Virus record (IMG/VR): IMGVR_UViG_2907546677_000002
Location: 1 to 64,000 of that record
Length of the DNA: 64,000 nt
Reading direction: 5' to 3' (one strand)
Source of the DNA: a virus
Taxonomy: Duplodnaviria; Caudoviricetes
The notes under the pieces were generated by a model. That model saw only the letters and a program-made list of their open reading frames with translations, ran no database searches and was not told the origin of the DNA. The translations under genes were made by a program, and so were the position numbers. Below are positions 3,440-50,254 of the stretch, piece by piece (positions within the stretch are counted from its first letter, which is position 1; each line of letters begins with the position of its first letter).

Positions 3440-4648
3440 ATGAGCAAGGAACTGTCAACCCTCGTCAAGACCGGCGTGGTGCAGGTCGGATGGCCCCGCC
3501 TCTACGAGGCCCAGTCGTTCAAGGCCGACAAGAACGGCAAGCCCGACCTCGTGCAGGAGTTCGACGAGAACGCGCTGCTGGACGACGCCGACCGGGGGCA
3601 CGCCGACAGCGTCAATGACGCATTGAAGAACTACGACGCCGCGGAAGACGATCCCAAGCGCCCCGAACTCGACATGGACGCCTTGGAGGACGTCTCGAAC
3701 CCCGCCCACCTGAAGAACGCGATGATGCTGCTGAAATACGTCAAGAGCCATTTCAGCACCACGGTGGCGGGAAAGCCGTCATACAGCCTCACCGTCCTGT
3801 TCGACAAGGACGATCCGTCCCAGGCGCGCAACATCAAGATGCTCCGCGAAGGCCAGTCGAACGCCATGAAGAACGCCGTCGCCAAGAAGACATGGATGAA
3901 GGCCACCATCCAGACAGCATCCCGCGCCATGCAGGACTGCGACACCGACGTGCAGACGTACGGCACCGGCGACAACGCCAAGCAGATGACCGCCGCCCAG
4001 AAGTACCCGGAACGCGCGAACCACTGGTACCTCAACGCCAAGGCCAAGCGCCGCCCCGACATCTACTACCTGTCCAAGGCGAACAAGTTCGTCAAGCTGC
4101 CCGCCCCGATCCTCATGCCGGAATCCGACGAGGAGCGCGAACAGGCGCTGCAGATCGAGGAACTGTGGAACAAGTGGGTGTACCCCGGCCAGAACGCGAT
4201 GCTGGGCGTGACGTTCAAGGCATGGACCAGTCCCGCCGGCGCCGGCGTCTCCTGCCATCTGGAGGCCGTGTTCATCATCGGCGGAGGCGTGAGGCTCGGC
4301 GGATACTCGTTCGGCGAGATCTTCGGCGACGAGGACCTTCAGGCGGCGGCCGAATGGCTGAAGAAGAACGCCCCCGATTTCGACCCGGAGACCGGCAAGG
4401 TCCGCCACGCGGAACCGGCCATGATGGACGACGACGAGGATTCCGAAGTAGACGAGACCACCGGGGAGATCACTGATCCGGAGCTCGCGCCCGTGCCGGA
4501 ACCCAAGCCGGTGAAGAAGCGCCGCACGACCCGCGCGAAGAAGCAGCTCGCGCCCGCGCCGGAACCCGAGCCCGCCGTCCCGGAGACCCCGGACACGGAG
4601 GATGCAGACGGGGACGATGGCGAGTTCGGCGAAGACGTCATCTGGTGA
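3440..4648 (+). CDS. phage-type single-stranded DNA-binding protein (DUF2815 / T7 gp2.5-like)
   Basis: SYSLTVLFDKDD, HWYLNAK, VYPGQNA and GVSCHLEAVFIIGGGVRLGG motifs. Acidic tail ends in an aromatic residue (EFGEDVIW). GGAG SD before ATG 3440. Confidence 0.7.
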   Translation: MSKELSTLVKTGVVQVGWPRLYEAQSFKADKNGKPDLVQEFDENALLDDADRGHADSVNDALKNYDAAEDDPKRPELDMDALEDVSNPAHLKNAMMLLKYVKSHFSTTVAGKPSYSLTVLFDKDDPSQARNIKMLREGQSNAMKNAVAKKTWMKATIQTASRAMQDCDTDVQTYGTGDNAKQMTAAQKYPERANHWYLNAKAKRRPDIYYLSKANKFVKLPAPILMPESDEEREQALQIEELWNKWVYPGQNAMLGVTFKAWTSPAGAGVSCHLEAVFIIGGGVRLGGYSFGEIFGDEDLQAAAEWLKKNAPDFDPETGKVRHAEPAMMDDDEDSEVDETTGEITDPELAPVPEPKPVKKRRTTRAKKQLAPAPEPEPAVPETPDTEDADGDDGEFGEDVIW

Positions 4649-4672
4649 TGACCGCCCCTGACGGGGCGTCGG

Positions 4673-4709
4673 AGCGGGAGAGCCGGGAGAAGATCCCGGC
4701 CCTCCCGCT
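4673..4709. terminator. hairpin between convergent genes
   Basis: agcgggag-a-gccggga / tcccggc-c-ctcccgct stem. Confidence 0.55.
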
Positions 4710-4710
4710 T

Positions 4711-7074
4711 TCAGAGGTTCGTCCCACTGTTGCCCGGCGGTGGCGTAGGCGTCGGGGTCGGCGTGGGAGCGGGCGTGGTCGTCTGCCTCTTCGGCGTGGG
4801 CGTCGGAGTGGTCTTCGGCGTCGTGTACTGGCGTCGCGGCGTGTACGAATAGCCGCTGCCGTTGCTGGACTGCGAGCGTTGCTGTTGCTGCTGTTGGGCC
4901 TTCTTCTGGGCTTCGGCCTGCTCCTTCGCCTTCTTCTCGGCGTCATCCTTGGCTCTCTTGTCGGCCTTCTCCTTGGCGACCTTCGCGACCAGCTGGCGCA
5001 GCTGCTCCCCCGCGTCGCCGGCGTCCTTCAGGTTGTCTTTGGTGACCTGGACTCCCTTCCACTCCCCCATCAGCTTTTCCATATCCTGTTTGCCGGTCGA
5101 ATCCGGCGCGTCCTTCAACCCCTCCCCCTGCTGTATGAGTGACTGGAGGGTTTTGCCCGTCTCCTCGGCCTTCTTGTCCATGAGGGTTCCATACTCGTCG
5201 TTCAGGTTCTTGTATGCCGTGTCCGCTTCACGCAGTGCCTTGCGCAGTGCGGTGGACGTCATGGGGCGTTGCTTTGTGACCGTCTGCAGGTTCTCCATCA
5301 GTTTCTTCACTGGCGGGTCGTCGTTCAATCCCATGTCCTCGATCTGCGTGATCAGGGCGGACGACTCCCCCTGCATGCGCTCCCACCTGCCCTGCAGTTG
5401 GGTGAGCTCGTTCTTCGCCTGCTGGGTTATCTCCTGCTGTCTTGCCTCCTCTTGCTTGCCTTGTACCGTGAGGTAGATCGCGTATCCGCCGCAGGCGAGC
5501 ACCACCGTGAGGGCGGTGGCGATGATGGCTATGAGAACAGCCATCCCCTTTCCTTTTTTCGTGGCGTCACGTGGAGCCGTTCCCACATCGGGACGGTATG
5601 CCAGTGGGACGTTCTGACGGTCTGCCGGCATACCGCCGTACTGTTCTCCCGGCGTGACGTTCTGTTTGTATGCCGGCATGCCGTCGCGCTGTTCCGGCAT
5701 GCCCGTCCCGTCATCATCCCAGTCTCTCCAGAAGCCGTCGTCCTGCGCGCCTTCCTGGGGCTGTTCCGCCGTCATGACATTCTGCCGTCGTGCGGTTGTG
5801 CCGTTCAGCCATGTTGACGTTGCACCGTCCTTCTGGCGTGCCGTCTTGCCGTTGTCCTTTTGTGCCGGCAATCCGTTCTGGTACCGCATCGGATCTACGG
5901 CAACCTGTCCCGCCTGTCCGCCGTCAAACCCGTCAGACTGCATTCCATCATCACGGTACGCCGTTTCGCCGTTTCGCCATCGCGCCGTCACGCCGTTTTC
6001 CCGTTGGGTTAGAGAACCGCCGCGACGTTCGGACGTTCCTCCGCCGTCTCCACTCTGCGGGTTCTGATCCTCGTCGGCTCCTTCCCAGACATCCCACATG
6101 TCGTCAGGGTCGGGGTCGTCGTGGGCGCTGGTGCCCGCCGGCGGATCGCCGTCCGGCTGCGCGGCTTCCCGCGGTTCGTACGTTGCGCCGTCGGAACCGC
6201 CCGACGGCGCAACGTCGCCACGTTCTTGTGTCGTAACGTCATGCCGTTGCGCCGTCATGCCGTTCTGTCGGGTTCCGCTCAGGCCGGCGTCATAGTTCCG
6301 CGTCGGATCCTGGGGTTCGGCTGGCGGGGCGATAGGATCATCCCAGTCGCCCCACATGTCATCCCGGGAATCCGGGGATTGGTTCCGGTAGGATGGCTCC
6401 CGCGCTGTCATGCCGTCATCACGTGACGCCGTTTCGCCGTCGTCTTGTCGTGCCGGTATCCCTGTGCCCTTTTCAGCCGCTATGCCGTGGTCACGTCCCA
6501 ACGGTTCGACGTTGGCACGTTCCGCCTGTACACCGTTGGATGTGGCGGCATCAGGGGCGTCATGCCGGGCTTCCGGCTCGTCGAGGTCGCCCCACGGATC
6601 ATCCAGGTCTATTTCGGGGTATTCGCCGCGACCTGCGTCCGACGTTGCGTCGTGTCCACTGTCTGCCGTGTAGCCGGCATGACGTTCCGCCGGTTCCACG
6701 GTATCCCGTCGTTCCGAGGAAACGGCATCACGTTGTTCTGGTGGCACGGCGTCATGTTGCGCCGGGGCATCGGCGGGACGTTTCACCGTAATGCCGGTGT
6801 CACGTTCAGCCGTTGAGACATCACGACGTGACGCCGGTTTCCTGTGGTCACGTGTGACAGGGGAGCCGTCATGCTGTTGCGCCGTCCCGCCGGTGTGATG
6901 TCGCGACGACATGCCGCCTTCCCGTCGAACCGTTTCACCATCATCCCGTGACGACGTTCCACCGGCGTGACGTTCCCACGTGCCGCCGTTTCGCCGGTCT
7001 TCCGTTTCGCCGGTGTCGGGCATCAGCAGGGAATCATCCAGCTCATTGCTTCCCGTGAGCCAGTCGTCGGCCAT
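4711..7074 (-). CDS. membrane-anchored protein: long 8-aa pseudo-repeat N-terminus, TM helix, coiled coil, P/T-rich tail
   Basis: GGAGG SD before ATG 7074. TM segment MAVLIAIIATALTVVLACGGYAIYL. 8-residue periodicity, e.g. QNGLPAQK/DNGKTARQ/KDGATSTW/LNGTTARR. Confidence 0.75.
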   Translation of the reverse strand: MADDWLTGSNELDDSLLMPDTGETEDRRNGGTWERHAGGTSSRDDGETVRREGGMSSRHHTGGTAQQHDGSPVTRDHRKPASRRDVSTAERDTGITVKRPADAPAQHDAVPPEQRDAVSSERRDTVEPAERHAGYTADSGHDATSDAGRGEYPEIDLDDPWGDLDEPEARHDAPDAATSNGVQAERANVEPLGRDHGIAAEKGTGIPARQDDGETASRDDGMTAREPSYRNQSPDSRDDMWGDWDDPIAPPAEPQDPTRNYDAGLSGTRQNGMTAQRHDVTTQERGDVAPSGGSDGATYEPREAAQPDGDPPAGTSAHDDPDPDDMWDVWEGADEDQNPQSGDGGGTSERRGGSLTQRENGVTARWRNGETAYRDDGMQSDGFDGGQAGQVAVDPMRYQNGLPAQKDNGKTARQKDGATSTWLNGTTARRQNVMTAEQPQEGAQDDGFWRDWDDDGTGMPEQRDGMPAYKQNVTPGEQYGGMPADRQNVPLAYRPDVGTAPRDATKKGKGMAVLIAIIATALTVVLACGGYAIYLTVQGKQEEARQQEITQQAKNELTQLQGRWERMQGESSALITQIEDMGLNDDPPVKKLMENLQTVTKQRPMTSTALRKALREADTAYKNLNDEYGTLMDKKAEETGKTLQSLIQQGEGLKDAPDSTGKQDMEKLMGEWKGVQVTKDNLKDAGDAGEQLRQLVAKVAKEKADKRAKDDAEKKAKEQAEAQKKAQQQQQQRSQSSNGSGYSYTPRRQYTTPKTTPTPTPKRQTTTPAPTPTPTPTPPPGNSGTNL
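5561..7017 (+). repeat. intragenic arrays of degenerate octamer MCGKYNNG with exact 8-bp period
   Basis: Runs at about 5561-5696, 5769-5880, 5945-6048, 6180-6275 and 6405-6540, plus a near-unbroken run of 47 register positions at 6642-7017 (e.g. ACGTTTCA CCGTAATG CCGGTGTC ACGTTCAG CCGTTGAG). Confidence 0.85.
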
Positions 7075-7099
7075 GTTTTCGCCTCCTCCAATCAGTATG

Positions 7100-8947
7100 C
7101 TACATGCCCTCTTGTGCGGACAGGCGGGCGACCGTCCTCAAGGAGTCGAGGGCGCTCACATGCTTGGCATCCACACCCGCCTCTATCAGCTTGCTCGCGT
7201 GGGCCGCCGCAGCGGCGCCCTTCAATGGGGCGTCACGGTCGTCCACGTCGCGCCCGTCCTCTCCGAAACCGTCCGTCGGGAACCCGTCGCCGGGATCGTC
7301 CTTGCCCTCGTACATGCTGCCGTCGTCCGGTTTCTCCGCGACGGCCGGCACGAGGTTGAGGATGTCGTCCCATGACAGGTGGCCGGCGTTGTCGTCGCCC
7401 TGCGGCGGGCGGATCCTTTCGATCCGTTCCTTGAGGATGTCCGGGTAGGTGAGCCCTTTCGCCTTGTCCTCCTCGTACAGGCCCTTGTACACGAATGGCA
7501 GCTGGTTGGGAAGCTCGGCGACGCCACATCCGATGGCGACGCCCTCCTCCATGAGGTTGGCGGGCAGCCGCGGGCAGTCCTTGTTGGTGAAGACCGCTTC
7601 GCGGATGTTGTCTGCCGCGTTTCCGGGGAGGATGGGGGACAGGTTGTTTCGGACGGACGGGTCGAGGCCGTTGGGCGCGCTGGGCGTCTGCGCGGCGTAC
7701 AGGAAGAATATTCCGGAGGCGCGGGCTATCTGCGATATCTTGCGCAGGAGGATGAAGCTCTTAGCATGGAGGGCTTTCTCGTATTTCGCGGCGATCTGGT
7801 CGGGGTTGTCCTTGTCGAGTCCGGGCAGGGTGACCGGCGAAGCCCATTGGGCGATCTCATCGCAGGCGAGAAGTATTGCATGGTTCTCATCCTTGGTCTG
7901 CTGGTCGAGCTCGAACCAGTTGCTCTTGCCCATGCGTTCGATCATCATGGCCCGCGAACTGCACAGGTTCATGATGTGCTGCAGGACGGCGCAGCAGCTT
8001 TCCTCGCTGTCGCACCCATACCCTTTGTCGATGACGTAGGATCGGCACCACTTGAAATCATTGCGTTTGAGGATGCTGTCGCATAGGGCGAGGTCGCATC
8101 CGGCAACGAGGGCCGAGTAGATGATGTTGTTGATGATGACGCTCTTGCCGTTGCCGCTCTTGCCGGCGACGATCAGTCCGGGGGACTCCTTGAAGTCGAC
8201 GCACGCCCAGTCTCCCGTCTCTCGTCCCTTGTCCGGCAGTTTCATGCCGAAGTAGATGTGCCGCATGTCGGGCTTGTCCCACAGCTCCTTCGGGAGGCTG
8301 ATGACCTTGGGGAACGTCGGGGGAGTGCCGGGGTAGACCATGATGACGCCGGTCTCCGGGTTGGCTTTGAAGAACCATCCCTTCTTCCCGATGGATTCGA
8401 CGGCCTCCTGCATCTTCTTGTCATGCGCCGACGCCTGGTAGGTGACGACGCCCTCCTTGAGTTTGAGACGCCACCCGTTCTCCGGGGTACGGCTGATGCG
8501 CAGGTTCCACGGCTGGATCTTGAACACGTTGGCGGCGAAGATCTGTCGCGCCGCCGTGGTCTTCTCGTCGAGCTGCTGCATGAGGACGAGGCATTCCTTG
8601 CTGCTGATGCGCACGAAGTCCACAACGCTGTACCCCTCATATTTCTGCTGGTGTTCCAGATCGTCGACGAGGTGTTTCTGCGCTGCGGGGCCGGAGCATT
8701 CGCTGGCGCTGAGCTTGAGCCCTATGGTGCCGTCGTTCAGGTCGGCTGAGTCCATATCCATGGGCGCGATGATCGCGTAACGGTTGTTGGGGTCGACGCT
8801 GTAGACGCTGTATCCCTCATACTCGTGGTTCTTGGCCGCCTTCTCCTGGATGAGGACGGTGAGCTGCATCATGTCCTTCGGATTGGTCTTGTCGAATCCG
8901 TCGGGGAAGAACTTGCCGAGAGGTATTTTCCTGAGTGCCCCGCTCAA
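7100..8947 (-). CDS. FtsK/SpoIIIE-family ATPase
   Basis: Walker A GLIVAGKSGNGKS, Walker B ILLACDEIAQW, ARASGIFFLYAAQ. Duplicated YEGYSV module in the N-terminus. Confidence 0.85.
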   Translation of the reverse strand: MSGALRKIPLGKFFPDGFDKTNPKDMMQLTVLIQEKAAKNHEYEGYSVYSVDPNNRYAIIAPMDMDSADLNDGTIGLKLSASECSGPAAQKHLVDDLEHQQKYEGYSVVDFVRISSKECLVLMQQLDEKTTAARQIFAANVFKIQPWNLRISRTPENGWRLKLKEGVVTYQASAHDKKMQEAVESIGKKGWFFKANPETGVIMVYPGTPPTFPKVISLPKELWDKPDMRHIYFGMKLPDKGRETGDWACVDFKESPGLIVAGKSGNGKSVIINNIIYSALVAGCDLALCDSILKRNDFKWCRSYVIDKGYGCDSEESCCAVLQHIMNLCSSRAMMIERMGKSNWFELDQQTKDENHAILLACDEIAQWASPVTLPGLDKDNPDQIAAKYEKALHAKSFILLRKISQIARASGIFFLYAAQTPSAPNGLDPSVRNNLSPILPGNAADNIREAVFTNKDCPRLPANLMEEGVAIGCGVAELPNQLPFVYKGLYEEDKAKGLTYPDILKERIERIRPPQGDDNAGHLSWDDILNLVPAVAEKPDDGSMYEGKDDPGDGFPTDGFGEDGRDVDDRDAPLKGAAAAAHASKLIEAGVDAKHVSALDSLRTVARLSAQEGM

Positions 8948-9690
8948 CGGTCCGTCTCCTTTCCATCGATGTCGGTTCTTAGCTGCCTGACCGCTCCCGT
9001 ATTGTCTTCGTATGCACCCCAGCCGAACGGGGTGCGCATGTCCGCCTCCGTGTTGACGATCATGGTGGTCGCGTGCGAATGGTTGCTTTTGCGGATCAGG
9101 GGGGTCACTGGCGCGGCTCCGAGATGGACGTGCGTGGCTTCCTCGCGAAGCCGTGCGGCCAGGTCACGTCCCATGGTGCGCCGGTTGAGCTCGCGTCCGG
9201 CGAGGACGACGGCCACGCCGGTCTGCCGGGCCTGTCCGATGATTCCGTTGAGCAGCACGCTGATGGTCTTGTATGCTCCGCATGGACGCTCGTTGCTGAC
9301 TTCACCCTGGGTCATGGCGTCGAAGTCGTCGAACACAAGCAGCAGCGGCCGGCGTGCGGGCGCGTCGGTTTCCGTGGGATGCCCGGACATCCTGCGCCGC
9401 TGTTCGGCCTGCGCCCGTTCCAACAGTTCGATGATCCTCGTGTCGTCCCCGTAATCGAGGTTCATGATGGTGGGGGAGGGAAGCGGCACGCCCTTCCTCC
9501 CCAATCGGGTGACGCTGGCTCCGTCCCGCTGGGCTTCGAGCATGATCCGGTCGGCGAACGTCGTCTTCCCGCAACCCTCATGGCCGGTGACGGTGAGTGT
9601 CGGAGAATCCTTCGTATCCCAGATGATTCGGCTGCCCCGCTGGTCGTGTCCCAGATCGATTTCCAATGCGTGTTCCTTTCCTGTGTTCAC
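8944..9690 (-). CDS. stand-alone FtsK-like P-loop ATPase domain
   Basis: LTVTGHEGCGKTT, LLLVFDDFD, ARQTGVAVVLAG. Start and stop overlap both neighbours. Confidence 0.75.
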   Translation of the reverse strand: MNTGKEHALEIDLGHDQRGSRIIWDTKDSPTLTVTGHEGCGKTTFADRIMLEAQRDGASVTRLGRKGVPLPSPTIMNLDYGDDTRIIELLERAQAEQRRRMSGHPTETDAPARRPLLLVFDDFDAMTQGEVSNERPCGAYKTISVLLNGIIGQARQTGVAVVLAGRELNRRTMGRDLAARLREEATHVHLGAAPVTPLIRKSNHSHATTMIVNTEADMRTPFGWGAYEDNTGAVRQLRTDIDGKETDR

Positions 9691-12600
9691 CAGTCGACCT
9701 CTTCGATGTCGTCCGGCGACTCGTCCTTGTTGTTGAGCAGGCTGTCGATCTCCTCCGCGTCGACCTGCTCACTCTGGGTTGTCTGCGTGTTCTGGTTGTT
9801 GAGGAGGTTGGCGAGTTCGTCATCGGATAGTTCGCCGTACCGTTCGGCGGCTGCGGGCATGAACGGCGAATAGTCGATGGGATGGGGTTTCGGATGGTCT
9901 CGGAACAGTTCCGCCAGCGCGTCCTGCTCTCCCGAATACCATGTCTGGACTGCGAGGAGTTCGCCCTGCGCGGTCTCGAACATGCCTCGTCCCTGGGGTA
10001 TCCGCCCGCCTTCGCCCTTCAACGACTGTTGGAGCCGGTTCGCTTCCTGCAGGTTCTGCTGGCTGATGATTCCGGCTGTGGAGTCCATGCCCAGGAGGAT
10101 GCGTCCGAGCGAACGGAACAGGGCGTTGGCGTTATACGGTTTCATGTCGTCCATGGACAGTCGTTGGGCGCCGAGGATGACGCTGATGCCCGCGGTTCGT
10201 CCCTGCACGACGATCTTTCCGAGCGCGCTCATGGTCCGTCGTATCGAATTGTTCGTCGCGGACACGGCCGCGTTGTCGTTCGCCAATTGGATGTCACGGT
10301 TCGGATTCTGCGTGGTCTTGCCGGCCTCCTGCAGATAGGAGTTGAACTCGTCGAAGAACAGGTCTATCGGCCGGACGTGCTCCAGCTCTTCGGGTGAGAG
10401 CATGGAACGGTCGAGCTCGTAGATGCTCGCGGCCCCGTATTTGCTGAGCAGTCTCACCCTTTGCGCCATCTCGTCGCGTAGCCACGCGATGACCGCTTCG
10501 GTCTCGCGCATCTGCCCGAGTCCCACGAACGCCAACGCCAACGGTTTCGCCCACCGGGTGAAATCGATGCAACCCTTTGACGGGTCGACGAGGATGATGC
10601 CATGCCCCTTGAGCAGCGCTTCGGCGACAATGATCTGCGCGGCGGATGATTTTCCGGTGCCCGACTTGCCGCTGACGAGCAGATGGTACGTGTCTTTCAC
10701 GTTCCAATAGACTGGGCTACCCATATCGTCCACTCCGAGCGGGAACATGCGTGGTTCCGCCGCGCGGGCGAAATCCCAGTCCGCTTCGACCATGGTGGGG
10801 AAGGGGCTGCGCTTGGCGAGCACCATGTCGTATCGTGTCGCGCCATGTTCCTCGCCGCGGGGGAGGATGCGCCCGTACCCGTATCCGGCGGCCGTCATGA
10901 ACTTTCCGATATTATGCTGCGGCTTGTCCACGTCCAGTCCGGCGGGAATGTCGAACCTGGCGAGGAGCACGTCGTGATTGCGGGGGAGGGCGCCCAGCTT
11001 GACGACCTTCGGGGTGCGTCCCGCGCTGTCGGTCACTCCCGCGTCTCCCCATGCGTCGGACAATGCCAGCTCGATCAGGAGCTTCTGCATCTGGCGTCTG
11101 CGCCAATGGGGGAGGTCTTCGACGCCGAGATGCGGGTCCCTGCACAGCCACAGGCTCGCCATGTCGGCTTTCTGCCAATCCCAGTACACGTGGGTCGCGC
11201 CGACCGCGGATTCCACGCGGGCCGCCTGCTTGCGCACGTCCATGACGGTGCCACCGCGATCCAAATGGAATTTGACGCGCCAGATCGCCACGTCACGCCC
11301 CTCCTGCGTGCACGAGTCGATGGTTGCGCCGGTCTTCGCGGGGAGCACGTCAAGCAGCGCCTTGAACACGATGCACTGCGCGTACTGGCGTATGTGCGGC
11401 TGTCCTCCGGTCAGGTTCTCGATGCGCGTGGGAGCCGCGCCGTCGGCGGTCAGCAGGTAGCCGGACTGGTCCTCGCCGATGACGCCCACGTATCGGGCGT
11501 CCGGAGCGAGCGTGGAGAGGTCCAGTCGCGCGTAGTCCGCCGCCGTGGACGGAGGGGTGAAACGGAGAGGCAGTATGCGCAGCGTCCAACCGCCGTCGCA
11601 ATCGAGCTCCTTTTCCCCGTCGTACAGTCCGATGGGCGCCGGGAGCTTGTTACCGATCAGGTCGCTCCACGTGGACTGGTCGGACTGGCAGCGTCGGGAG
11701 ACGCTGATGTAGTCGGCGAACGGCTTCCTCAACGTCATGCCGTCCGGCCTCCAACGGTTGCCCCTGTCGGACAGCGGGGTGTCAGGTTCGGCGACGAGGT
11801 GGAACGCAAAGGTCAGGTCGGCGAATACGGGCAGGTGCAGTGTCTGGTCGGGACCCCAGTCGCCGCCGAGCCAGTCGAAGCCGATCTTGTCGATGGGGTC
11901 GCCGCCCGATGGGGGAGTGTGGATGAGCAGCAGCCATGCGGCCTTCTCCCCGTCGGCGCTCACGTCCTTCGCTTCGGTCAGCGGCGCGCGCTTGTTCCAG
12001 ATGAGCGCGGTCCGCGCGTACGCGATGTCGCATACCAGGGTCGCTAGCCCCTCGCCAACGTCGCGCCTGCCGATGGAGGGGATGCTGGACTCGTCGCGGC
12101 CGAGTGCGAGACGGAAGCTGGACGGGTCGAACTGGAACGCGCCGGCCTTGCGCTGACGCGCCGCGAGCAGGCATACGAAACTGTATCCGTCGGCCGCGGT
12201 GACCGCCTTGACTTTCTCGACGCCGGTCTTGAACACGTCGTCGACGCTGCGTTTCTGACCGTCCTGCGAGCTGAGCGTGATACGGATGACGGTTAACGGG
12301 TTCTGCGGATCCCCCTTATGGTCCACTTGGGTGACGTACGCTCCCTCCCATGCTTTCCACAGGTCACTGCCTGACGCCCACTTGTCCACGAGCTGCTGTG
12401 TGTCCACGAGATCATGCCAGTACTGTGACTGGGGTTTGCGGGCGAGCAGCCACACGATGACGAGGAACAGCATGGCCGGGAGCGCGATGACGGCCGGAAG
12501 CGACATGTGCCCGATGTCTTCGGCCAGCCCGCGCATGAAGAGGAACAGCAGGAAGGCAAGCAGAATCAGGCTCGGAGCGCAAGCCAGGATCCTTTCCGAA

Positions 12601-13094
12601 ACGGAACCGTGTTTCAGGAATCCGGGAACGGACACACCCTTGTACACGTGCCTGCGGTCGGCCGCACGGTCGCGCCAGCGGATGAAGCCCATCATGCATG
12701 GGAACGCGGCGAGCATGTTCACGGCCAGCACGATCATTCCGGCGGAGCCGGGTGTCGCCAGCACGCCGACTGCCCAGCCCATCCACCATGAGACGCGCCG
12801 GACTTCCAGCCAATCCTTGTTGGGGATGATCCCGGCGAGCATGTCCTTCCACCGATGATATGCGGTCATGTCCCTGGGGTCGGGCTGGTCGGTTTTGCGT
12901 CCCGAACGCGGCTGGGGGAAACGCGCGGTCAGCCCGCCGAGAAGCATACCGATGAGAAGGAACGGCATGACCGGCAATCCCACCCACCATGCGATCGGAA
13001 TGATGAGTACGGGTATGGCGAACCACGCCCCTGCCAGAATGGGTTTGGCCTGTCGTGATCGTGCCCTGCTTCGTCGTCTGTATGCCACAGCCAA
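9687..13094 (-). CDS. membrane-bound FtsK/SpoIIIE-family ATPase (TcpA/TraB-like)
   Basis: Several N-terminal TM helices. C-terminal HLLVSGKSGTGKS, IDLFFDEFN, GRTAGISVILGAQR. Confidence 0.85.
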   Translation of the reverse strand: MAVAYRRRSRARSRQAKPILAGAWFAIPVLIIPIAWWVGLPVMPFLLIGMLLGGLTARFPQPRSGRKTDQPDPRDMTAYHRWKDMLAGIIPNKDWLEVRRVSWWMGWAVGVLATPGSAGMIVLAVNMLAAFPCMMGFIRWRDRAADRRHVYKGVSVPGFLKHGSVSERILACAPSLILLAFLLFLFMRGLAEDIGHMSLPAVIALPAMLFLVIVWLLARKPQSQYWHDLVDTQQLVDKWASGSDLWKAWEGAYVTQVDHKGDPQNPLTVIRITLSSQDGQKRSVDDVFKTGVEKVKAVTAADGYSFVCLLAARQRKAGAFQFDPSSFRLALGRDESSIPSIGRRDVGEGLATLVCDIAYARTALIWNKRAPLTEAKDVSADGEKAAWLLLIHTPPSGGDPIDKIGFDWLGGDWGPDQTLHLPVFADLTFAFHLVAEPDTPLSDRGNRWRPDGMTLRKPFADYISVSRRCQSDQSTWSDLIGNKLPAPIGLYDGEKELDCDGGWTLRILPLRFTPPSTAADYARLDLSTLAPDARYVGVIGEDQSGYLLTADGAAPTRIENLTGGQPHIRQYAQCIVFKALLDVLPAKTGATIDSCTQEGRDVAIWRVKFHLDRGGTVMDVRKQAARVESAVGATHVYWDWQKADMASLWLCRDPHLGVEDLPHWRRRQMQKLLIELALSDAWGDAGVTDSAGRTPKVVKLGALPRNHDVLLARFDIPAGLDVDKPQHNIGKFMTAAGYGYGRILPRGEEHGATRYDMVLAKRSPFPTMVEADWDFARAAEPRMFPLGVDDMGSPVYWNVKDTYHLLVSGKSGTGKSSAAQIIVAEALLKGHGIILVDPSKGCIDFTRWAKPLALAFVGLGQMRETEAVIAWLRDEMAQRVRLLSKYGAASIYELDRSMLSPEELEHVRPIDLFFDEFNSYLQEAGKTTQNPNRDIQLANDNAAVSATNNSIRRTMSALGKIVVQGRTAGISVILGAQRLSMDDMKPYNANALFRSLGRILLGMDSTAGIISQQNLQEANRLQQSLKGEGGRIPQGRGMFETAQGELLAVQTWYSGEQDALAELFRDHPKPHPIDYSPFMPAAAERYGELSDDELANLLNNQNTQTTQSEQVDAEEIDSLLNNKDESPDDIEEVDW

Positions 13095-15808: not shown

Positions 15809-15882
15809 GGGGTGTTGTTGTCAACCAACCCGCAAACCCGCATAGAATCAGAACCACCCCCCCCCGACAGTAAGGGAAAACC

Positions 15883-16839
15883 ATGGACAGAAAAAAGGCA
15901 ATCGCCGCCATCCTCGCGATCATCCTCCTCGTCGCCGGCGTCATCGCATGGTCGACATGGCGCAAGCAGGTCACCCGACAGCAACAGGAGGAAAACCGAT
16001 CCGCCATCGCACGGCAACACCGCAACAACGCCAAACCCAAACCCGCCATCACCAGCCAGCAGGCGGCGGAATACAAGCAGACCGCCATCCAGTTCGAGAA
16101 GACAAGCCGCGAATGGGGCACCGACCCGCAGACGGCCGTCAGCGACACGAACGCCGGACAGGACACCAACACGGTGCTCAACCGGCTACGCACCCCCGCG
16201 ACAATGAACCCGGCCACACTCGACACGGTGTCATCCATCAAACGCGACAAGGACACGGGCCCCCACGCGCCAAGCCCATACTGCGACGGCACCCAGCCGA
16301 CCGTATGCGCCATGACCCCCACCATGCTCGACTACTGGAGGAACCAGGCATGGATCCTCGGAGCCCGCATGGACGGCACACCCGACACGACAGTCAACGA
16401 CGACGGAACCATCGACATCAAAGGGCGCATGAAAGTCGTCATCTGGGGAGATACGCAGGACGCACCCGCCTATCAGAGCGACGACGGCACATGGTGGAAC
16501 TTCACGCCGGTCACCGGCTACGTCAGCTACGCGGACACGCTCACCATCGGCGCGGACGGCCGGGTGAGCCGTCGCGTGGAGAACCTGGACACCGACTTCA
16601 TCATCGACCCATGGTACGAGACATGGGACTCGAACCCCATGGGAAGCACCTCACGCCTGACGGGGCGAGCACAGGCGAGTATCCCCTTGAAGGGCGGCGT
16701 GCCGTCACTGGGCATGAACCATGATCCGAACGTGGGGGTCGTCAAAAACCTCAACGTCATGCAGGGCGGACAGTGGGCGAGGATATTCTCTGAACACTCC
16801 GAAAGGATGCAGCAGAGCGAAGGCGACAACAGCTACTAG
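15883..16839 (+). CDS. membrane-anchored/exported hypothetical protein
   Basis: MDRKKAIAAILAIILLVAGVIAWSTW signal/anchor; AAGGGA SD. Confidence 0.75.
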   Translation: MDRKKAIAAILAIILLVAGVIAWSTWRKQVTRQQQEENRSAIARQHRNNAKPKPAITSQQAAEYKQTAIQFEKTSREWGTDPQTAVSDTNAGQDTNTVLNRLRTPATMNPATLDTVSSIKRDKDTGPHAPSPYCDGTQPTVCAMTPTMLDYWRNQAWILGARMDGTPDTTVNDDGTIDIKGRMKVVIWGDTQDAPAYQSDDGTWWNFTPVTGYVSYADTLTIGADGRVSRRVENLDTDFIIDPWYETWDSNPMGSTSRLTGRAQASIPLKGGVPSLGMNHDPNVGVVKNLNVMQGGQWARIFSEHSERMQQSEGDNSY

Positions 16840-31229: not shown

Positions 31230-32270
31230 CTAGTATTCGACGGCTTCGATGCGCGTGATGAAGAAGTGGATGCCTGGAGCGCATTCGTTCCACCGGTCGG
31301 GGTCGAAGTCTTCGACGGTCACGGTTTCGCCTTTTTTGTAAATGAAGTCCGTGTCGTATCTGCTGTATGCCGTGGTATCCGGCTTGAGACTGTGGCCGTC
31401 AAGGTCTTGCAGGTCGAGCACTTGGGCTTTGCTGGCGCGGCATTTACGACCCGTGGCGTTGGAGCGCTGCGCGTCGGACGGGACAAGCAGTTTCACGATG
31501 ACTGGCGTCTTAAAAGACATTCTGCCGTCTATCCATGCTTTTTTCCAGCCGATTATGTCGCCATCGTCCGGGAGGATGCACGTCTGCGCGATGATAAGGT
31601 CTGCGTCGTCGGCATTGGTTATGTCGGCACCGCTTAGGTTTGCACCGCTTAGGTTTGCACCGCTTAGGCCGGCGGCGCGCAGGTTTGCGCCGGTCAGTTT
31701 TGCATCGCGCAGGTTTGCATAGCTTAGGTTTGCGCCGGTCAGGTCGGCGTCGCACAGGTTTGCATCGTGCAAGTTTGCATCGTGCAGGTTTGCACCGTGC
31801 AAATTTGCGCCGGTCAGGTCGGCACGGCGCAGGTCGGCACGGCGCAGGCCGGCACGGCTCAGGTCTGCGCCGCTTAGGCCGGCACGGCTCAGGCCAGCGC
31901 CGGTCAGGTCTGCGCCGCTTAGGCCGGCACGGCGCAGGCCAGCGCCGGTCAGGTGGGCATCGCGCAGGTTTGCACCGTGCAGGTCGGCACGGCACAAGTC
32001 GGCGCCGGTCAGGTCGGCATCGCGCAGGTCGGCATCGCGCAGGTCTGCGCCGCTTAGGCCGGCACGGCTCAGGTCGGCACCGTGCAGGTTTGCATAGCTC
32101 AGGTCGGCGCCGGTCAGGTCTGCATTGGTCAGGTCTGCATTGGTCAGGTCTGCATGACTTAAGTCAAACCCGCGCAGGTCGGCGTTGCGGAGGCAGTCGC
32201 GCCCGTATTCTTCGAGGATGGCCTCGATGCTGTCGCCCTTGAGGGTGCCGTGTGGCGTGGTGATTTTCAT
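31230..32270 (-). CDS. pentapeptide-repeat protein with C-terminal DUF5758-like domain
   Basis: About 38 A(D/N/G)Lxx repeats. C-terminal IVKLLVP...RSNATGRKCRASKA...YKKGETV...CAPGIHFF. Alternative in-frame starts at 32345 and 32381. Confidence 0.85.
   Translation of the reverse strand: MKITTPHGTLKGDSIEAILEEYGRDCLRNADLRGFDLSHADLTNADLTNADLTGADLSYANLHGADLSRAGLSGADLRDADLRDADLTGADLCRADLHGANLRDAHLTGAGLRRAGLSGADLTGAGLSRAGLSGADLSRAGLRRADLRRADLTGANLHGANLHDANLHDANLCDADLTGANLSYANLRDAKLTGANLRAAGLSGANLSGANLSGADITNADDADLIIAQTCILPDDGDIIGWKKAWIDGRMSFKTPVIVKLLVPSDAQRSNATGRKCRASKAQVLDLQDLDGHSLKPDTTAYSRYDTDFIYKKGETVTVEDFDPDRWNECAPGIHFFITRIEAVEY
31615..32187 (-). repeat. 15-bp tandem coding repeat (pentapeptide)
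   Basis: e.g. gccgacctgaccggc / gcaaacctgcacgat units. Confidence 0.85.
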
Positions 32271-32385
32271 TGGGTTTCCTCGTTGTATGTGGGATTTCGG
32301 CTCTGTTGTTTCGTCGTTGAATGTGGATACTGTGGGCTGTTGCATGGTTTTCCTTTGTTTGGCCGCGGATGGCGCGAACATCTTT

Positions 32386-48100: not shown

Positions 48101-48587
48101 GAGCGGCATCCGCAAGGGCATGGCCGACCTTGACTCCAAGAGGCGCGGGCACGAACCCGGATTCGGGTCCGCTCCGGGAAGTCCTCACGCGGATCCTCCC
48201 GACCCGACCGCGTATTCCCCCGACGGGCAGACGCTCCGTGACGGCAACCCGTTCCAGACGGAGGACAAGCCGTACACGGACGGCATGCGCGACGAGGCCG
48301 GCAACCTCACCCCGGACGGCGAGTCCGCGATGAGTTACGCGCGCAACGGTCTCATGGACGATTACATGAACAACCAGCACATGACCCGCGAGGAGGCCGA
48401 GGACGCCTTGCAGGGCGACATGGTGAGCGGGCGCCTGCGCGATCTCGCGGAACGCCGTTACGCGATGGAGCACGAGCCTCGGAACGGTGCGGCGGATTCC
48501 ACGCCGACGACCCCGATCAATGTGATGGACGGAACCGTGACCGAGGTCATCGACACTCCCACCCAATCCGACGGCACGAGCATCTAG
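45174..48587 (+). CDS. large polytopic membrane protein, VirB6-like
   Basis: Signal/TM, TM cluster, large extracellular domain, second TM cluster, G/A/R-rich cytoplasmic tail. Confidence 0.7.
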   Translation: MRHANPMRAVLRRNLLLMLLLVLTVTLVCMPASAFAGSNTNAGITENGVSGCVTVGSGTNEYDFSTCLPSGRWGGFVGILTTRTEPSGGLFGPLANAAAYVGTTIRLMLPRMLMMITQVCWSSALAFSQFAASFNPLDTAGAQLDAATSRLISNILAGSIPAVLVVLAIVGWILAAGFEIGTTKEASKRLLATVLCLSALIVMGNGAAKTGEDATEPAAGSPWWVVKTLNNAINTMTVGLNLDGLNDGNENMMAYDNRGNGNDANCQDYLYQMHQQYNDNTTAKGNADSSAVTSAVNRLWEETTLRNWVTMQWNNPTAAGSVTDKQAANAQQAYCHVIDLQANTDPTVQKDLTNAAMGSSIDDNTARWIFTHMGWISTYNSLVDDGKQQDDRDDTVRESRAGVFWETCTTNSKGTPKARDGWGKIINNLGDKKTGRISNGGKAVRAARSAYSTDDTFPSDGSKTLLSTSDGDDAARVKATGVVCKVILNSADSNGGVFHRTLDGFDKLNDQSDTNIGDAATLGWRFDIPNLGATWREVNATGLNNPTTDDGAAKSTLDYMYGNASPDTLGAFGSMIGGIVNCIVWGLFSIILIMSKLMLLMMVLFLAVAFLIRAVPIGEKPKKVLGNWVKLTCNLSMTGALYAVIGTIATFICQLALTFCSGMTSTFVYNLIANTSPILAMITIGMFCSKVVKCGNPLSISAMMGVAGGGALAGGVGKGLSSIGRQMMYARAMFGGGSPFGFGRGSHAAGRRSSRHAGGGVYGATDGQRILDGVSEAQADAPSQSARRTPSNRTTYKDGRKVSPLSEQWSQHGAGTVRGSLAYAARGAERRAGKAGKSFASSMRHGSRRDMNDYIHQYWQMHPNGSADGAVRYASVRDKLSRAGDASLGVVAGANAAVRFAGAAFRSKPLRDVAKRTAKVAAVAGAGALAFSNPITAPLGLMAMGKLATSRDVWHGARVGLNTAGNGAKWALNKSKSGIRKGMADLDSKRRGHEPGFGSAPGSPHADPPDPTAYSPDGQTLRDGNPFQTEDKPYTDGMRDEAGNLTPDGESAMSYARNGLMDDYMNNQHMTREEAEDALQGDMVSGRLRDLAERRYAMEHEPRNGAADSTPTTPINVMDGTVTEVIDTPTQSDGTSI

Positions 48588-48597
48588 GGGGGGCACC

Positions 48598-48948
48598 ATG
48601 GAATCCACCACCAACCAGACGGCGCAGATCGCCGGGCAGGGTGCCGCCGATTTCTTCAGCGTGTTCCTCGCATGGGTGTTCACGCCGACCGGCGCGATTC
48701 TCACGCTCCTCCTGATCCTCATCGGCGGGGGGAGCCTCGCCATGAGGGTCATGGGTCGGGCGAGCAGGCTGCTGAGTGTTCTCGGCACGATCACCGCGAT
48801 CCTGTTTTTCGTGTGGATCGTCAGTGGCGTGATGGAGGGGTTCGGCATTCCCGTGAGGGAGTGGATTCGTTCCATCGCCATGCAGTTGCCTGATATCGGC
48901 ATGATGTTCAAGGCGTTCTTCGAACGTCTCCTGTACACGGCCGGCTGA
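48598..48948 (+). CDS. small membrane protein
   Basis: 2-3 TM helices; G7 run serves as SD. Confidence 0.7.
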   Translation: MESTTNQTAQIAGQGAADFFSVFLAWVFTPTGAILTLLLILIGGGSLAMRVMGRASRLLSVLGTITAILFFVWIVSGVMEGFGIPVREWIRSIAMQLPDIGMMFKAFFERLLYTAG

Positions 48949-48959
48949 GTTCCTGCCGG

Positions 48960-49063
48960 ACGTTCCGACGGCGTGCCGTGTTGACGGCGAGCGGTGTCGA
49001 CGTTGTGACGTTCCGCTGGTTTCCTGGCTGGGTGTCACGCCGGTAAGACGTCCAGTCGGTCTT
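48960..49063 (+). repeat. octamer array 1 upstream of parA (parS candidate)
   Basis: ACGTTCCG ACGGCGTG CCGTGTTG ACGGCGAG ... ACGTTGTG ACGTTCCG CTGGTTTC CTGGCTGG ... CCGGTAAG ACGTCCAG TCGGTCTT. Confidence 0.75.
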
Positions 49064-49126
49064 CTTCCCCGGTTAAGCCGGGTGAGGCTCGCGACGCGAT
49101 CCATCCGAATCCACACACGCTTGACA

Positions 49127-49240
49127 CCGGTACGCCGTTGTGCCGTCAGACCGTTAGAACGGCGTCGCAAACATGACGGGATGAGGTTCCAACGGCGTGC
49201 CGTGCCCCCGTTGCAATGGTATGATGTAACGGCGGCAGCG
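49127..49240 (+). repeat. octamer array 2 overlapping the parA promoter (parS/operator candidate)
   Basis: CCGGTACG CCGTTGTG CCGTCAGA CCGTTAGA ACGGCGTC ... ACGGCGTG CCGTGCCC CCGTTGCA ATGGTATG; extended -10 TGgTATGAT at 49217-49225. Confidence 0.7.
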
Positions 49241-49274
49241 GCATCCACACGCCCGGCCGCAAGGAGAACCGACA

Positions 49275-49892
49275 ATGACCATCATCATCGCCGTGGGATG
49301 CGCGAAAGGCGGTGTCGCCAAGACGACGACCGCGATGCAGCTCGCGGGCCTGCTCACACGATGGGGAAGACGCGCGGTCGTACTCGACGCCGACAACACG
49401 GGCGGCGCGACGAAATGGGCCATGACCGCGATGGACAACAGCGACAGTCTGGAGTTCCCCGTCAGCCCCGTCAACCAGGTGACCTTGAACAGGGAACTCA
49501 TCCAACGCCAATACCCGGACACGTGGGTGATTATAGACACGCCGCCCTCCGATACCGGGGTCATCCAGCTCGCGTTCAACGCGGCGGATGTCATCATCAT
49601 CCCCACACAGCCTTCGATGATGGATCTTCGCCTGGCGGCGGAGACCTACCGTGCGGTGTCTTCGGACAGCAGGACGGCAATCGTGCTCGTCACCAGGGCG
49701 AAGCTGAACACGCGGCTCACCAACGAGACGAAGGAGCAACTGGACGGGCTGGAGGTCACGCGGTTCGAGACGGTCATCAGGGACCGCGAAGCGGTCAAGG
49801 GAATGGCCGGCACAAGTCAGCTTGACATGGAGGACTATTCGAGCGTCGCACATGAGCTCATCGAGTTCGTGGAGCAGGACAGGAGACGGTGA
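49275..49892 (+). CDS. parA: ParA partition ATPase (short, type Ib)
   Basis: CAKGGVAKTT, VLDAD, VIIDTPP, ADVIIIPTQP; no N-terminal HTH. Confidence 0.9.
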   Translation: MTIIIAVGCAKGGVAKTTTAMQLAGLLTRWGRRAVVLDADNTGGATKWAMTAMDNSDSLEFPVSPVNQVTLNRELIQRQYPDTWVIIDTPPSDTGVIQLAFNAADVIIIPTQPSMMDLRLAAETYRAVSSDSRTAIVLVTRAKLNTRLTNETKEQLDGLEVTRFETVIRDREAVKGMAGTSQLDMEDYSSVAHELIEFVEQDRRR

Positions 49893-50254
49893 CCGTGGTA
49901 AAGAACATCAAACGGCAGAGGACGATGGGTGCGCTGGAGAAATCGGTCGGCATGTTCGCCGCTCCGCCCCAGGGGGAACCTGCCGCCGCGGCCATCCCGT
50001 CGGCGGCGAACCAGTCCGGGAGCATACGGGCGGCTCAGGAGCCGAAGCCGACGGCCCCCAACGGCAACGGCGGTCGCCCCCCGAAACAGCTCGGCTCGAA
50101 GGTGACATACGAGAACTGGAAGGCATGGCGGACCGCCGCCGTGGAGTTCGACATCACGCAGGTCGCGTTGCTGAACATGGCGTTCGACTACGTGTTCCAG
50201 CAGGGGCACGTCGAGGAGATCATGGGGCTGCGGGAGAAGTACGAGGAGGATTGA
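49889..50254 (+). CDS. ParG-like ribbon-helix-helix centromere-binding protein
   Basis: Disordered N-terminus, then KQLGSKVTYENWKAWRTAAVEFDITQVALLNMAFDYVF; coupled to parA. Confidence 0.7.
   Translation: MTVVKNIKRQRTMGALEKSVGMFAAPPQGEPAAAAIPSAANQSGSIRAAQEPKPTAPNGNGGRPPKQLGSKVTYENWKAWRTAAVEFDITQVALLNMAFDYVFQQGHVEEIMGLREKYEED

Follow-up and report, generated by a model that had tools for sequence, protein, structure and literature searches.

An array of 8-bp boxes shared with the parA upstream region lies inside a protein-coding gene of a pMP7017-type megaplasmid sequence and is a candidate binding array for a ribbon-helix-helix partition protein

The record IMGVR_UViG_2907546677_000002 (88,103 b) is filed as viral in IMG/VR, and its first 64 kb (bases 1-64000, the whole stretch analysed here and referred to as the window) display the backbone of the conjugative Bifidobacterium megaplasmid pMP7017, with an FtsK-like operon, a repA gene, a par operon of type Ib and a DUF2815/PD-(D/E)XK module. 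The present report deals with a long array of 8-bp boxes that occupies the 5' half of a minus-strand gene of this window (4711..7074), and with the occurrence of the same box upstream of the parA gene of the par operon. The gene encodes a protein of 787 aa which opens with a conserved start motif, DDWLTGxNxLD, and continues with some 480 aa of disordered low-complexity sequence, in which 8-aa pseudo-repeats of the xNGxTAxR type are broken by acidic-aromatic DDxW motifs. This disordered part is followed by one transmembrane helix (~aa 509-530), a coiled-coil or coiled-coil-like region and a P/T-rich tail with GNSGxNL at its end. Pfam yielded no family for the protein, and a search of the Atlas with its C-terminal half returned only unnamed or unreliable clusters (0.87-0.90). 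A previous reading of the DNA, made without database searches (the sequence-only reading), held that the gene is still translated, and the comparison with related plasmids agrees with this view. A single one of the three minus-strand frames is open over 4711..7074, and the six relatives examined that possess a full-length gene show no internal stop and conserve both protein ends together with the DDxW motifs, with variation in the length and sequence of the repeats; the partial copies from Pseudoscardovia suis and Galliscardovia exhibit the same N-terminal or C-terminal motifs. With an open frame, and with both ends of the protein preserved wherever a full-length copy was examined, the gene is, as judged from these sequences, translated. 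A contig from an RNA-seq library covers the gene but cannot prove its transcription, and strict sigma-70 and terminator scans gave nothing useful within it.

The boxes of the array (5561..7017) read MCGKYNNG on the plus strand and are organized in six main runs in strict register, located at 5561-5688 (16 octamers), 5761-5880 (15 octamers), 5897-6008 (14 octamers), 6180-6307 (16 octamers), 6405-6540 (17 octamers) and 6642-7017 (47 octamers), with a minor run of 4 octamers at 6017-6048. Tiling gives 125 boxes for the six main runs and 138 when the minor runs are included, which reproduces the six runs, the 47 positions at 6642-7017 and the total of about 120 counted by hand in the sequence-only reading. 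Between 5561 and 6048, all runs of at least four boxes share a single phase, with a run of three boxes (5703-5726) out of phase. The dinucleotide CG occupies positions 2-3 in 90 of the 125 boxes, against a frequency of this dinucleotide of 0.115 across the window. Of the eight positions of the box, five are kept and the others are nearly random. Within the runs, not a single 3- or 6-nt indel breaks the 8-bp register, even though such indels would be tolerated in a disordered region.

The periodicity is readily measured from the base identity within 5561-7017, which reaches 0.413 at a lag of 8 nt, 0.406 at a lag of 16 and 0.437 at a lag of 24, for ~0.25-0.26 at background and neighbouring lags and 0.31 at a lag of 3. 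Scanning the 64 kb in 300-nt windows designates 5561-7017 as the sole place with z>3, and scanning the whole 88,103-b record in 150-nt windows yields one other place above z 3.3, near 69.8 kb. The latter corresponds to a (CT)n tract of ~11 units (positions 69874-69895 of the record), whose score in the lag-8 scan is trivial. Shuffling the order of the codons removes the lag-8 signal (z 12.7), whereas resampling of synonymous codons with the protein kept lowers it to 0.335±0.009 versus the 0.413 observed (z 8.4), and permutation of synonymous codons within the region gives z 6.9; the 8-bp peak, which the sequence-only reading wished to see compared with codon-shuffled controls, accordingly stands above both these and the synonymous-resampled controls. 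The peptide repeat xNGxTAxR is nothing other than three boxes (24 nt) read in three frames, and the C-G core is kept at 0.73-0.94 in each of the three codon phases. Since the core is kept whichever codon phase the box falls in, a constraint exerted on the protein alone is insufficient, and the synonymous controls together with the codon-phase data support the proposal that the 8-bp unit is a feature of the DNA and the 8-aa pseudo-repeat its by-product.

The same box builds two arrays upstream of parA, as the sequence-only reading had noticed. Array 1 (48952..49063, plus strand) contains 14 octamers in register and is the positional equivalent of parH, and array 2 (49129..49231, plus strand), with ~9-13 octamers, is the positional equivalent of the OF operator. 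Array 2 overlaps an extended -10 element recognized by eye (TGGTATGAT, 49217-49225); a strict sigma-70 promoter scan at the par promoter found nothing. A matrix trained exclusively on the 23 parA-upstream boxes, and evaluated across the 88 kb over stretches of six octamers in a row, reaches 31-37 in the gene and in its own training region only, the next best score in the 88 kb being 12. The frequency matrices of the par boxes (23) and of the gene boxes (125) correlate with r = 0.96 when strand and register are the same; among the other rotations, the best reverse-strand value is 0.83 and all the remaining ones are at most 0.26. The best blastn match between the two loci (21 nt, 26 bits) equals that of the octamer-shuffled control. 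A recent duplication between the gene array and the parA arrays is ruled out on this ground: no alignment rises above the shuffled control, there is no alignable similarity beyond the motif, and the two loci are therefore not recent copies of each other. The gene array lies 42 kb from the par operon in the window, and the corresponding distance ranges from 31 to 76 kb on the other plasmids examined. An ORF (open reading frame) of 242 aa on the minus strand (48547-49275) spans the arrays upstream of parA and reads there as NGLTAQRR-like peptides; this ORF is probably spurious and illustrates how frames are kept open by the boxes.

The par operon consists of two genes overlapping by 4 nt. The first (49275..49892, plus strand) encodes a ParA of 205 aa with Pfam matches to AAA_31 (1.4e-14), CbiA, MipZ and ParA, and the system is assigned to type Ib because this ParA is short and devoid of an N-terminal HTH (helix-turn-helix) domain. 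The second (49889..50254, plus strand) encodes a protein of 121 aa, the putative centromere-binding protein, which the sequence-only reading took for a ribbon-helix-helix (RHH) protein. A structure model predicts a disordered tail (residues 1-61) followed by a strand-helix-helix fold, with a pLDDT (predicted local distance difference test) of 89-94. Foldseek places ParG of TP228 (1p94) first among the neighbours of this model, then PutA and CopG, with Arc lower; the closest neighbours are nearly all RHH proteins, at E ~1, weak values such as are to be expected for 45 residues, and Pfam gives Antitox_RHH at E 0.099. The model and its structural neighbours argue with moderate strength for a ParG-like RHH protein. 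The same pattern of a disordered tail and a strand-helix-helix occurs in the proteins encoded downstream of parA in six relatives. The locus associates a short Walker-type ParA, a small RHH protein encoded directly downstream and a tandem array of boxes upstream of parA, as in other type Ib systems, and 8-bp tandem boxes also occur upstream of parA in P. suis, Galliscardovia and the plasmid G006. In another part of the window, 8-bp direct repeats surround the start of the ORF 15883..16839, at 15827-15842 (AACCCGCA x2) and 16010-16031 (CACCGCAA x2.8), and may be related to the RepA-bound direct repeats described for pMP7017. RepA is an unlikely reader of the array boxes, because these RepA-proximal repeats represent a different motif that is missed by the box matrix.

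The segment homologous to the array, i.e., the 5' half of the homologous gene located just downstream of the FtsK-like gene, shows 8-bp phasing in 9 of the 11 related Bifidobacteriaceae plasmid lineages, with different motifs. It is 8-bp periodic in P. suis, B. callitrichidarum, Galliscardovia and the lineage L038, as well as in L039 and G006, which belong to the same lineage; in G006 it is the sole such region of any length in 191 kb. In L037, the identity at lag 8 (0.42-0.47) exceeds that at lag 24; its unit CAGTCCGA is read as the peptide QSDSPTVQ. The segments of pMP7017 and of the B. longum plasmid are periodic too but more weakly, with a dominant period of 24 nt, and phasing is absent from the homologous segment of L040 and of an Aeriscardovia metagenome-assembled genome. 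Depending on the lineage, both the motif and the peptide composition vary, and the 8-nt unit remains constant.

This diversity of motifs offers the opportunity to examine whether the boxes of the gene and those of the par operon change together. A matrix learnt from the gene of each plasmid was scanned over the whole contig of that plasmid and the 250-nt windows outside the gene were ranked; six plasmids entered the comparison, the parA regions of L036-L040 being unpaired and pMP7017 having no whole-plasmid rank. The plasmid's own parA-upstream region ranks 1/684 in the present record (z 7.8), 1/724 in Galliscardovia (z 6.1), 1/807 in B. callitrichidarum (z 5.3) and 3/1504 in G006 (z 3.7), where the word GGCGGAAC is found in both the gene and the parA region; the ranks are 44/1452 in B. 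longum and 49/673 in P. suis. In a 6x6 cross-test, the own gene-to-parA pairing gives the top summed score of the 720 possible pairings. Matrices from foreign plasmids mostly fail, e.g., with that of the window the rank is 527 in Galliscardovia and 458 in B. callitrichidarum, and the exceptions stay within motif classes that share RHH β-strand sequences. The window (QLGSKVT), pMP7017 (RFGSALT) and B. longum (RLGTNLT) form a first class of such β-strands, Galliscardovia (RFSSKMS) and P. suis (KFSCRLS) a second one, and B. callitrichidarum (RITGRVD) a third one. The matches obtained in P. suis and Galliscardovia coincide with tandem repeats of 8 bp that can be seen upstream of parA (CTGTGCTC x3 and the GCACACTC type, respectively). 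In Galliscardovia ingluviei (contig 6, ~81090-81260), a third array with the motif of that plasmid's gene and parA-upstream arrays occupies the promoter region of a DUF2815-like gene; its location at a promoter suggests, by analogy with the omega protein of pSM19035, that the RHH protein may regulate other promoters too.

Variation between strains was followed in four strains or metagenomes, over 4400-9800, and in one 99% relative. The relative shows 8 substitutions in the array and the isolates differ by 26-54 positions over these 5.4 kb, a variation too sparse to decide whether the core positions are protected. None of these sequences contains a frame-breaking indel or a polymorphism in the number of units. 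A gut-metagenome variant harbours a 114-bp in-frame deletion (38 codons) at 6100-6213, between two runs of boxes; among the strains compared, no other indel was seen in this half of the gene, the 5' one. A 3-bp insertion behind position 4882 comes from the same sample.

The genes surrounding the array belong to a set shared with pMP7017, in the common order of a DUF2815 gene, a gene for a hypothetical membrane protein, an FtsK-like gene, a large FtsK/SpoIIIE gene and repA. Directly upstream of the array-bearing gene and in the same operon, the gene 7100..8947 (minus strand) encodes an FtsK/SpoIIIE-like ATPase of 615 aa (Pfam FtsK_SpoIIIE) and ends 25 bp before the start of the array-bearing gene. 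It is accompanied by the genes of a small AAA/FtsK-like ATPase of 248 aa (8944..9690, minus strand) and of a membrane-anchored FtsK/SpoIIIE/HerA-like ATPase of 1135 aa (9687..13094, minus strand; Pfam FtsK_SpoIIIE). The FtsK-like gene shares 72.5% identity with that of pMP7017 at the DNA level and 62.5% at the protein level, and its product has 39 relatives in the protein collection, all from Bifidobacteriaceae wherever they are named. A search of genome contigs with the single protein found no relative, whereas the alignment-based search did. The same FtsK-like gene occurs in 39 'viral' contigs of IMG/VR, of 42-217 kb, which are probably megaplasmids or plasmid fragments rather than phages. 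In Pseudoscardovia suis, the ends of contig 7 (86,150 b) overlap by ~100 b and the periodic gene crosses the junction; the overlap indicates a circular plasmid of ~86 kb. Another repetitive gene of the window (31230-32381, minus strand) encodes a pentapeptide-repeat protein of 383 aa, with repeats of the A[DN]LxG type and a non-repeat C-terminal domain. A 15-nt unit is repeated 35 times in tandem at 31627-32154, and the product of the gene may be a DNA mimic or an anti-restriction protein.

Several partition systems provide a frame for the interpretation of the array. In TP228, one ParG dimer binds each 4-bp box, the boxes being separated by 4-bp spacers and distributed as 12+8 (PMC3130281). 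The window resembles ParF/ParG of TP228 in the succession of a short Walker-type ParA and an RHH protein with a flexible N-terminal tail, in the grouping of degenerate boxes into two clusters upstream of the operon, and in the 8-bp period, which in TP228 arises from a 4-bp core and a 4-bp spacer, mostly in direct orientation (PMC3130281). However, TP228 has 20 non-coding boxes adjacent to the operon, whereas the window has ~23 adjacent boxes and ~130 inside an ORF located 42 kb away; the core is MCGK instead of ACTC, the spacers are not AT-rich, and the partition proteins of the two systems show no detectable sequence similarity. The omega protein of pSM19035, an RHH protein which is both a centromere binder and a global regulator, recognizes 7-10 contiguous 7-bp repeats at six sites, and the activation of ParA requires no fewer than four of them in a row (PMC9499535). 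This δ/ω system resembles the present one by an RHH protein acting on contiguous unspaced short repeats at dispersed sites (PMC9499535), but its unit measures 7 bp, its sites comprise 7-10 repeats each, and all of them overlap promoters and none is coding. In pCXC100 from Leifsonia, an actinobacterial plasmid with type Ib ParA/ParB, the RHH protein cooperatively binds nine unspaced, weakly conserved 9-bp direct repeats (PMC3074162); the likeness extends to the unspaced and modestly conserved direct repeats, with the difference that the unit is of 9 bp and that the nine copies are all non-coding and upstream of par.

On balance, the evidence leans, by no great measure, towards an interpretation in which the 5' half of the gene consists of ~125-138 head-to-tail boxes for the RHH protein, identical in type to those of the parA arrays and overprinted, under selection at the DNA level, on the code for a disordered region. 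The simplest account would have the RHH protein reading the boxes of both loci. One RHH dimer would occupy each 4-5-bp core (MCGKY), every 8 bp, and the dimers would cooperatively coat the runs of 14-47 boxes, by analogy with the TP228 parH/OF sites, the heptads of pSM19035 and the 9-mers of pCXC100. The coated array would then create a second, very large platform for the partition complex 42 kb from the par operon, which might work as an accessory or 'super' centromere activating ParA and/or as a reservoir setting the free level of RHH protein and, through it, the repression of the par operon. The selection exerted on the boxes would dictate the odd xNGxTAxR peptide, the protein keeping only its frame, its length and its DDxW motifs, and the array would be tolerated inside the gene because this part of the protein is a disordered spacer of nearly free sequence. 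What the analysis shows is the periodicity at the DNA level, the common box, the translated gene, the predicted RHH fold and the joint variation of the motif across plasmids; we infer the binding of the RHH protein to the array, its cooperativity and any role in partition. Once coated, the 1.46-kb array could represent a candidate accessory or main centromere, a repressor-buffering reservoir or a regulator of the gene or operon; for the centromere function, the runs of 14-47 boxes are much longer than the minimum of four contiguous repeats in pSM19035.

Several observations weigh against this interpretation. The par locus already possesses two arrays which, by analogy with parH and OF, seem sufficient, and a third one, ten-fold larger, is left unexplained. 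The distant relatives L040 and the Aeriscardovia genome lack phasing, so that the protein, and perhaps the plasmid, can do without it. In pMP7017 (z 1.5), B. longum and P. suis the co-variation is weak, the matrices derived from the genes are low in information and were fitted with a free choice of phase, and the match of B. callitrichidarum resides in an A/C-rich spacer and may be partly compositional; besides, the lineages compared are related, so that the trials are not fully independent. The assignment of the RHH protein comes from a model built on an alignment of five sequences, together with the structural matches at E ~1 and the Pfam match at E 0.099. Finally, the few substitutions seen between strains show no visible avoidance of the core positions. 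A bolder proposal, in which the intragenic array would be the principal centromere of the plasmid, coated with RHH protein on a kilobase scale and overprinted on the disordered-region ORF beside the FtsK-like operon, appears doubtful; one DNA segment would then have three uses, those of a protein code, of a partition complex and possibly of a handle by which the plasmid is passed to the DNA translocases.

Other explanations do without an RHH protein, and some without any function of the DNA. A repeat of eight residues with a structural or binding role of its own, of which the 8-nt signal would be an incidental consequence, could account for the 8-aa periodicity and the DDxW motifs common to the homologues. 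It is extremely improbable: the signal exceeds the synonymous controls, lags 8 and 16 are about as strong as lag 24 and in L037 lag 8 surpasses it, the same core is found in all three codon phases, and the amino-acid composition changes completely from one plasmid to another while the 8-nt unit stays. Repeat arrays expand readily, and the array could also be an octanucleotide minisatellite devoid of function, possibly seeded by a par box, grown by slippage or gene conversion and tolerated in the code for a disordered region. Its location in a low-complexity segment whose sequence is not conserved between plasmids, the two distant relatives without phasing and the strain substitutions, somewhat denser in the array than in the FtsK gene, are compatible with such an origin. 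The units, however, are degenerate (lag-8 identity 0.41), with five of eight positions kept and the others nearly random, and this pattern of position-specific constraint disfavours recent slippage. Moreover, eight nucleotides are the wrong length for a coding repeat, yet the unit occurs in at least nine lineages with different motifs; neutral decay would hold neither the correlation of 0.96 with the par boxes nor the joint change of motif in several lineages, and the strains compared display no polymorphism in unit length, their sole difference in this respect being the 114-bp in-frame deletion between runs. A minisatellite is therefore considered unlikely.

The sequence-only reading had offered, besides a distal partition site, the possibility of a translocase-loading locus. 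On such a view, the array would serve the adjacent FtsK/SpoIIIE-like ATPases as a site of loading or recognition comparable to clt. The part of this proposal that relies on the neighbourhood holds good, as the array-bearing gene adjoins the FtsK-like gene in an operon of three FtsK-like ATPases, with a synteny conserved across the family, and all boxes have the same orientation. In this respect the array recalls the clt locus of Streptomyces conjugative plasmids, another actinobacterial system in which direct 8-bp repeats beside the gene of an FtsK-like ATPase are read by TraB (PMC4447253). The part that requires a reader among the ATPases fares less well. The clt locus comprises few repeats, is read by the C-terminal recognition domain of TraB and is not shared with a par operator, while no Ftsk_gamma or winged-helix domain was matched in Pfam at E<=1 in any of the three ATPases of the window, although a very divergent domain could escape such a search. 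In addition, the C-terminus of the 615-aa protein is highly conserved although the motifs differ between plasmids, and the identity of the box with that of parA, along with its co-variation with the par boxes, is unexpected for a translocase site and finds no explanation there. Such a site is quite unlikely. The remaining alternative retains the RHH protein but assigns it to gene control, the array acting as a copy-number-sensing roadblock or silencer of the gene or of the FtsK operon, in the manner of omega. RHH partition proteins do repress at arrays overlapping promoters (PMC9499535; PMC3130281), and in Galliscardovia the neighbouring DUF2815 gene carries the third array, built of the same boxes, in its promoter region. 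Here, by contrast, the boxes fill 1.46 kb of coding sequence instead of a promoter, no promoter-like site was found in the region, and repression would need far fewer boxes, which makes a purely regulatory array very unlikely.

With regard to previous work, the portions of the pMP7017 literature covered by term searches deal with the RepA/RepB repeats and with transcription, and contain no mention of the boxes, of a par centromere or of the periodic gene. A full-text literature search for RHH centromeres located inside coding sequence found nothing either, so no earlier description of an intragenic array of this kind was found, and the array is unusual in its size, its distance from the par operon and its overprinting on a translated ORF.

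The known type Ib centromeres are arrays of 60-180 bp, non-coding and located beside the par operon. The array described here would be about ten times larger than the known examples, distant from the operon and embedded in a translated gene, and its 8-bp phasing would be conserved in a family of megaplasmids of gut bacteria, with a motif that changes together with the par operator. If the RHH protein binds the boxes, the array would offer a clear example from nature of a coding sequence on which a DNA-binding code has been superimposed, with a peptide repeat as its by-product. In the same event, 'protein repeats' whose period in nucleotides cannot be divided by three may betray cis elements hidden in other genes. 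Should the array even prove to be the principal centromere, it would follow that DNA-binding codes can shape disordered proteins and that large plasmids can hide long cis-acting arrays in their genes. The megaplasmids of bifidobacteria measure 90-200 kb, with roughly one copy for each chromosome; if the RHH protein binds the array, this would provide a direct handle on their upkeep and organisation, and the idea is testable with the genetic tools already available for pMP7017.

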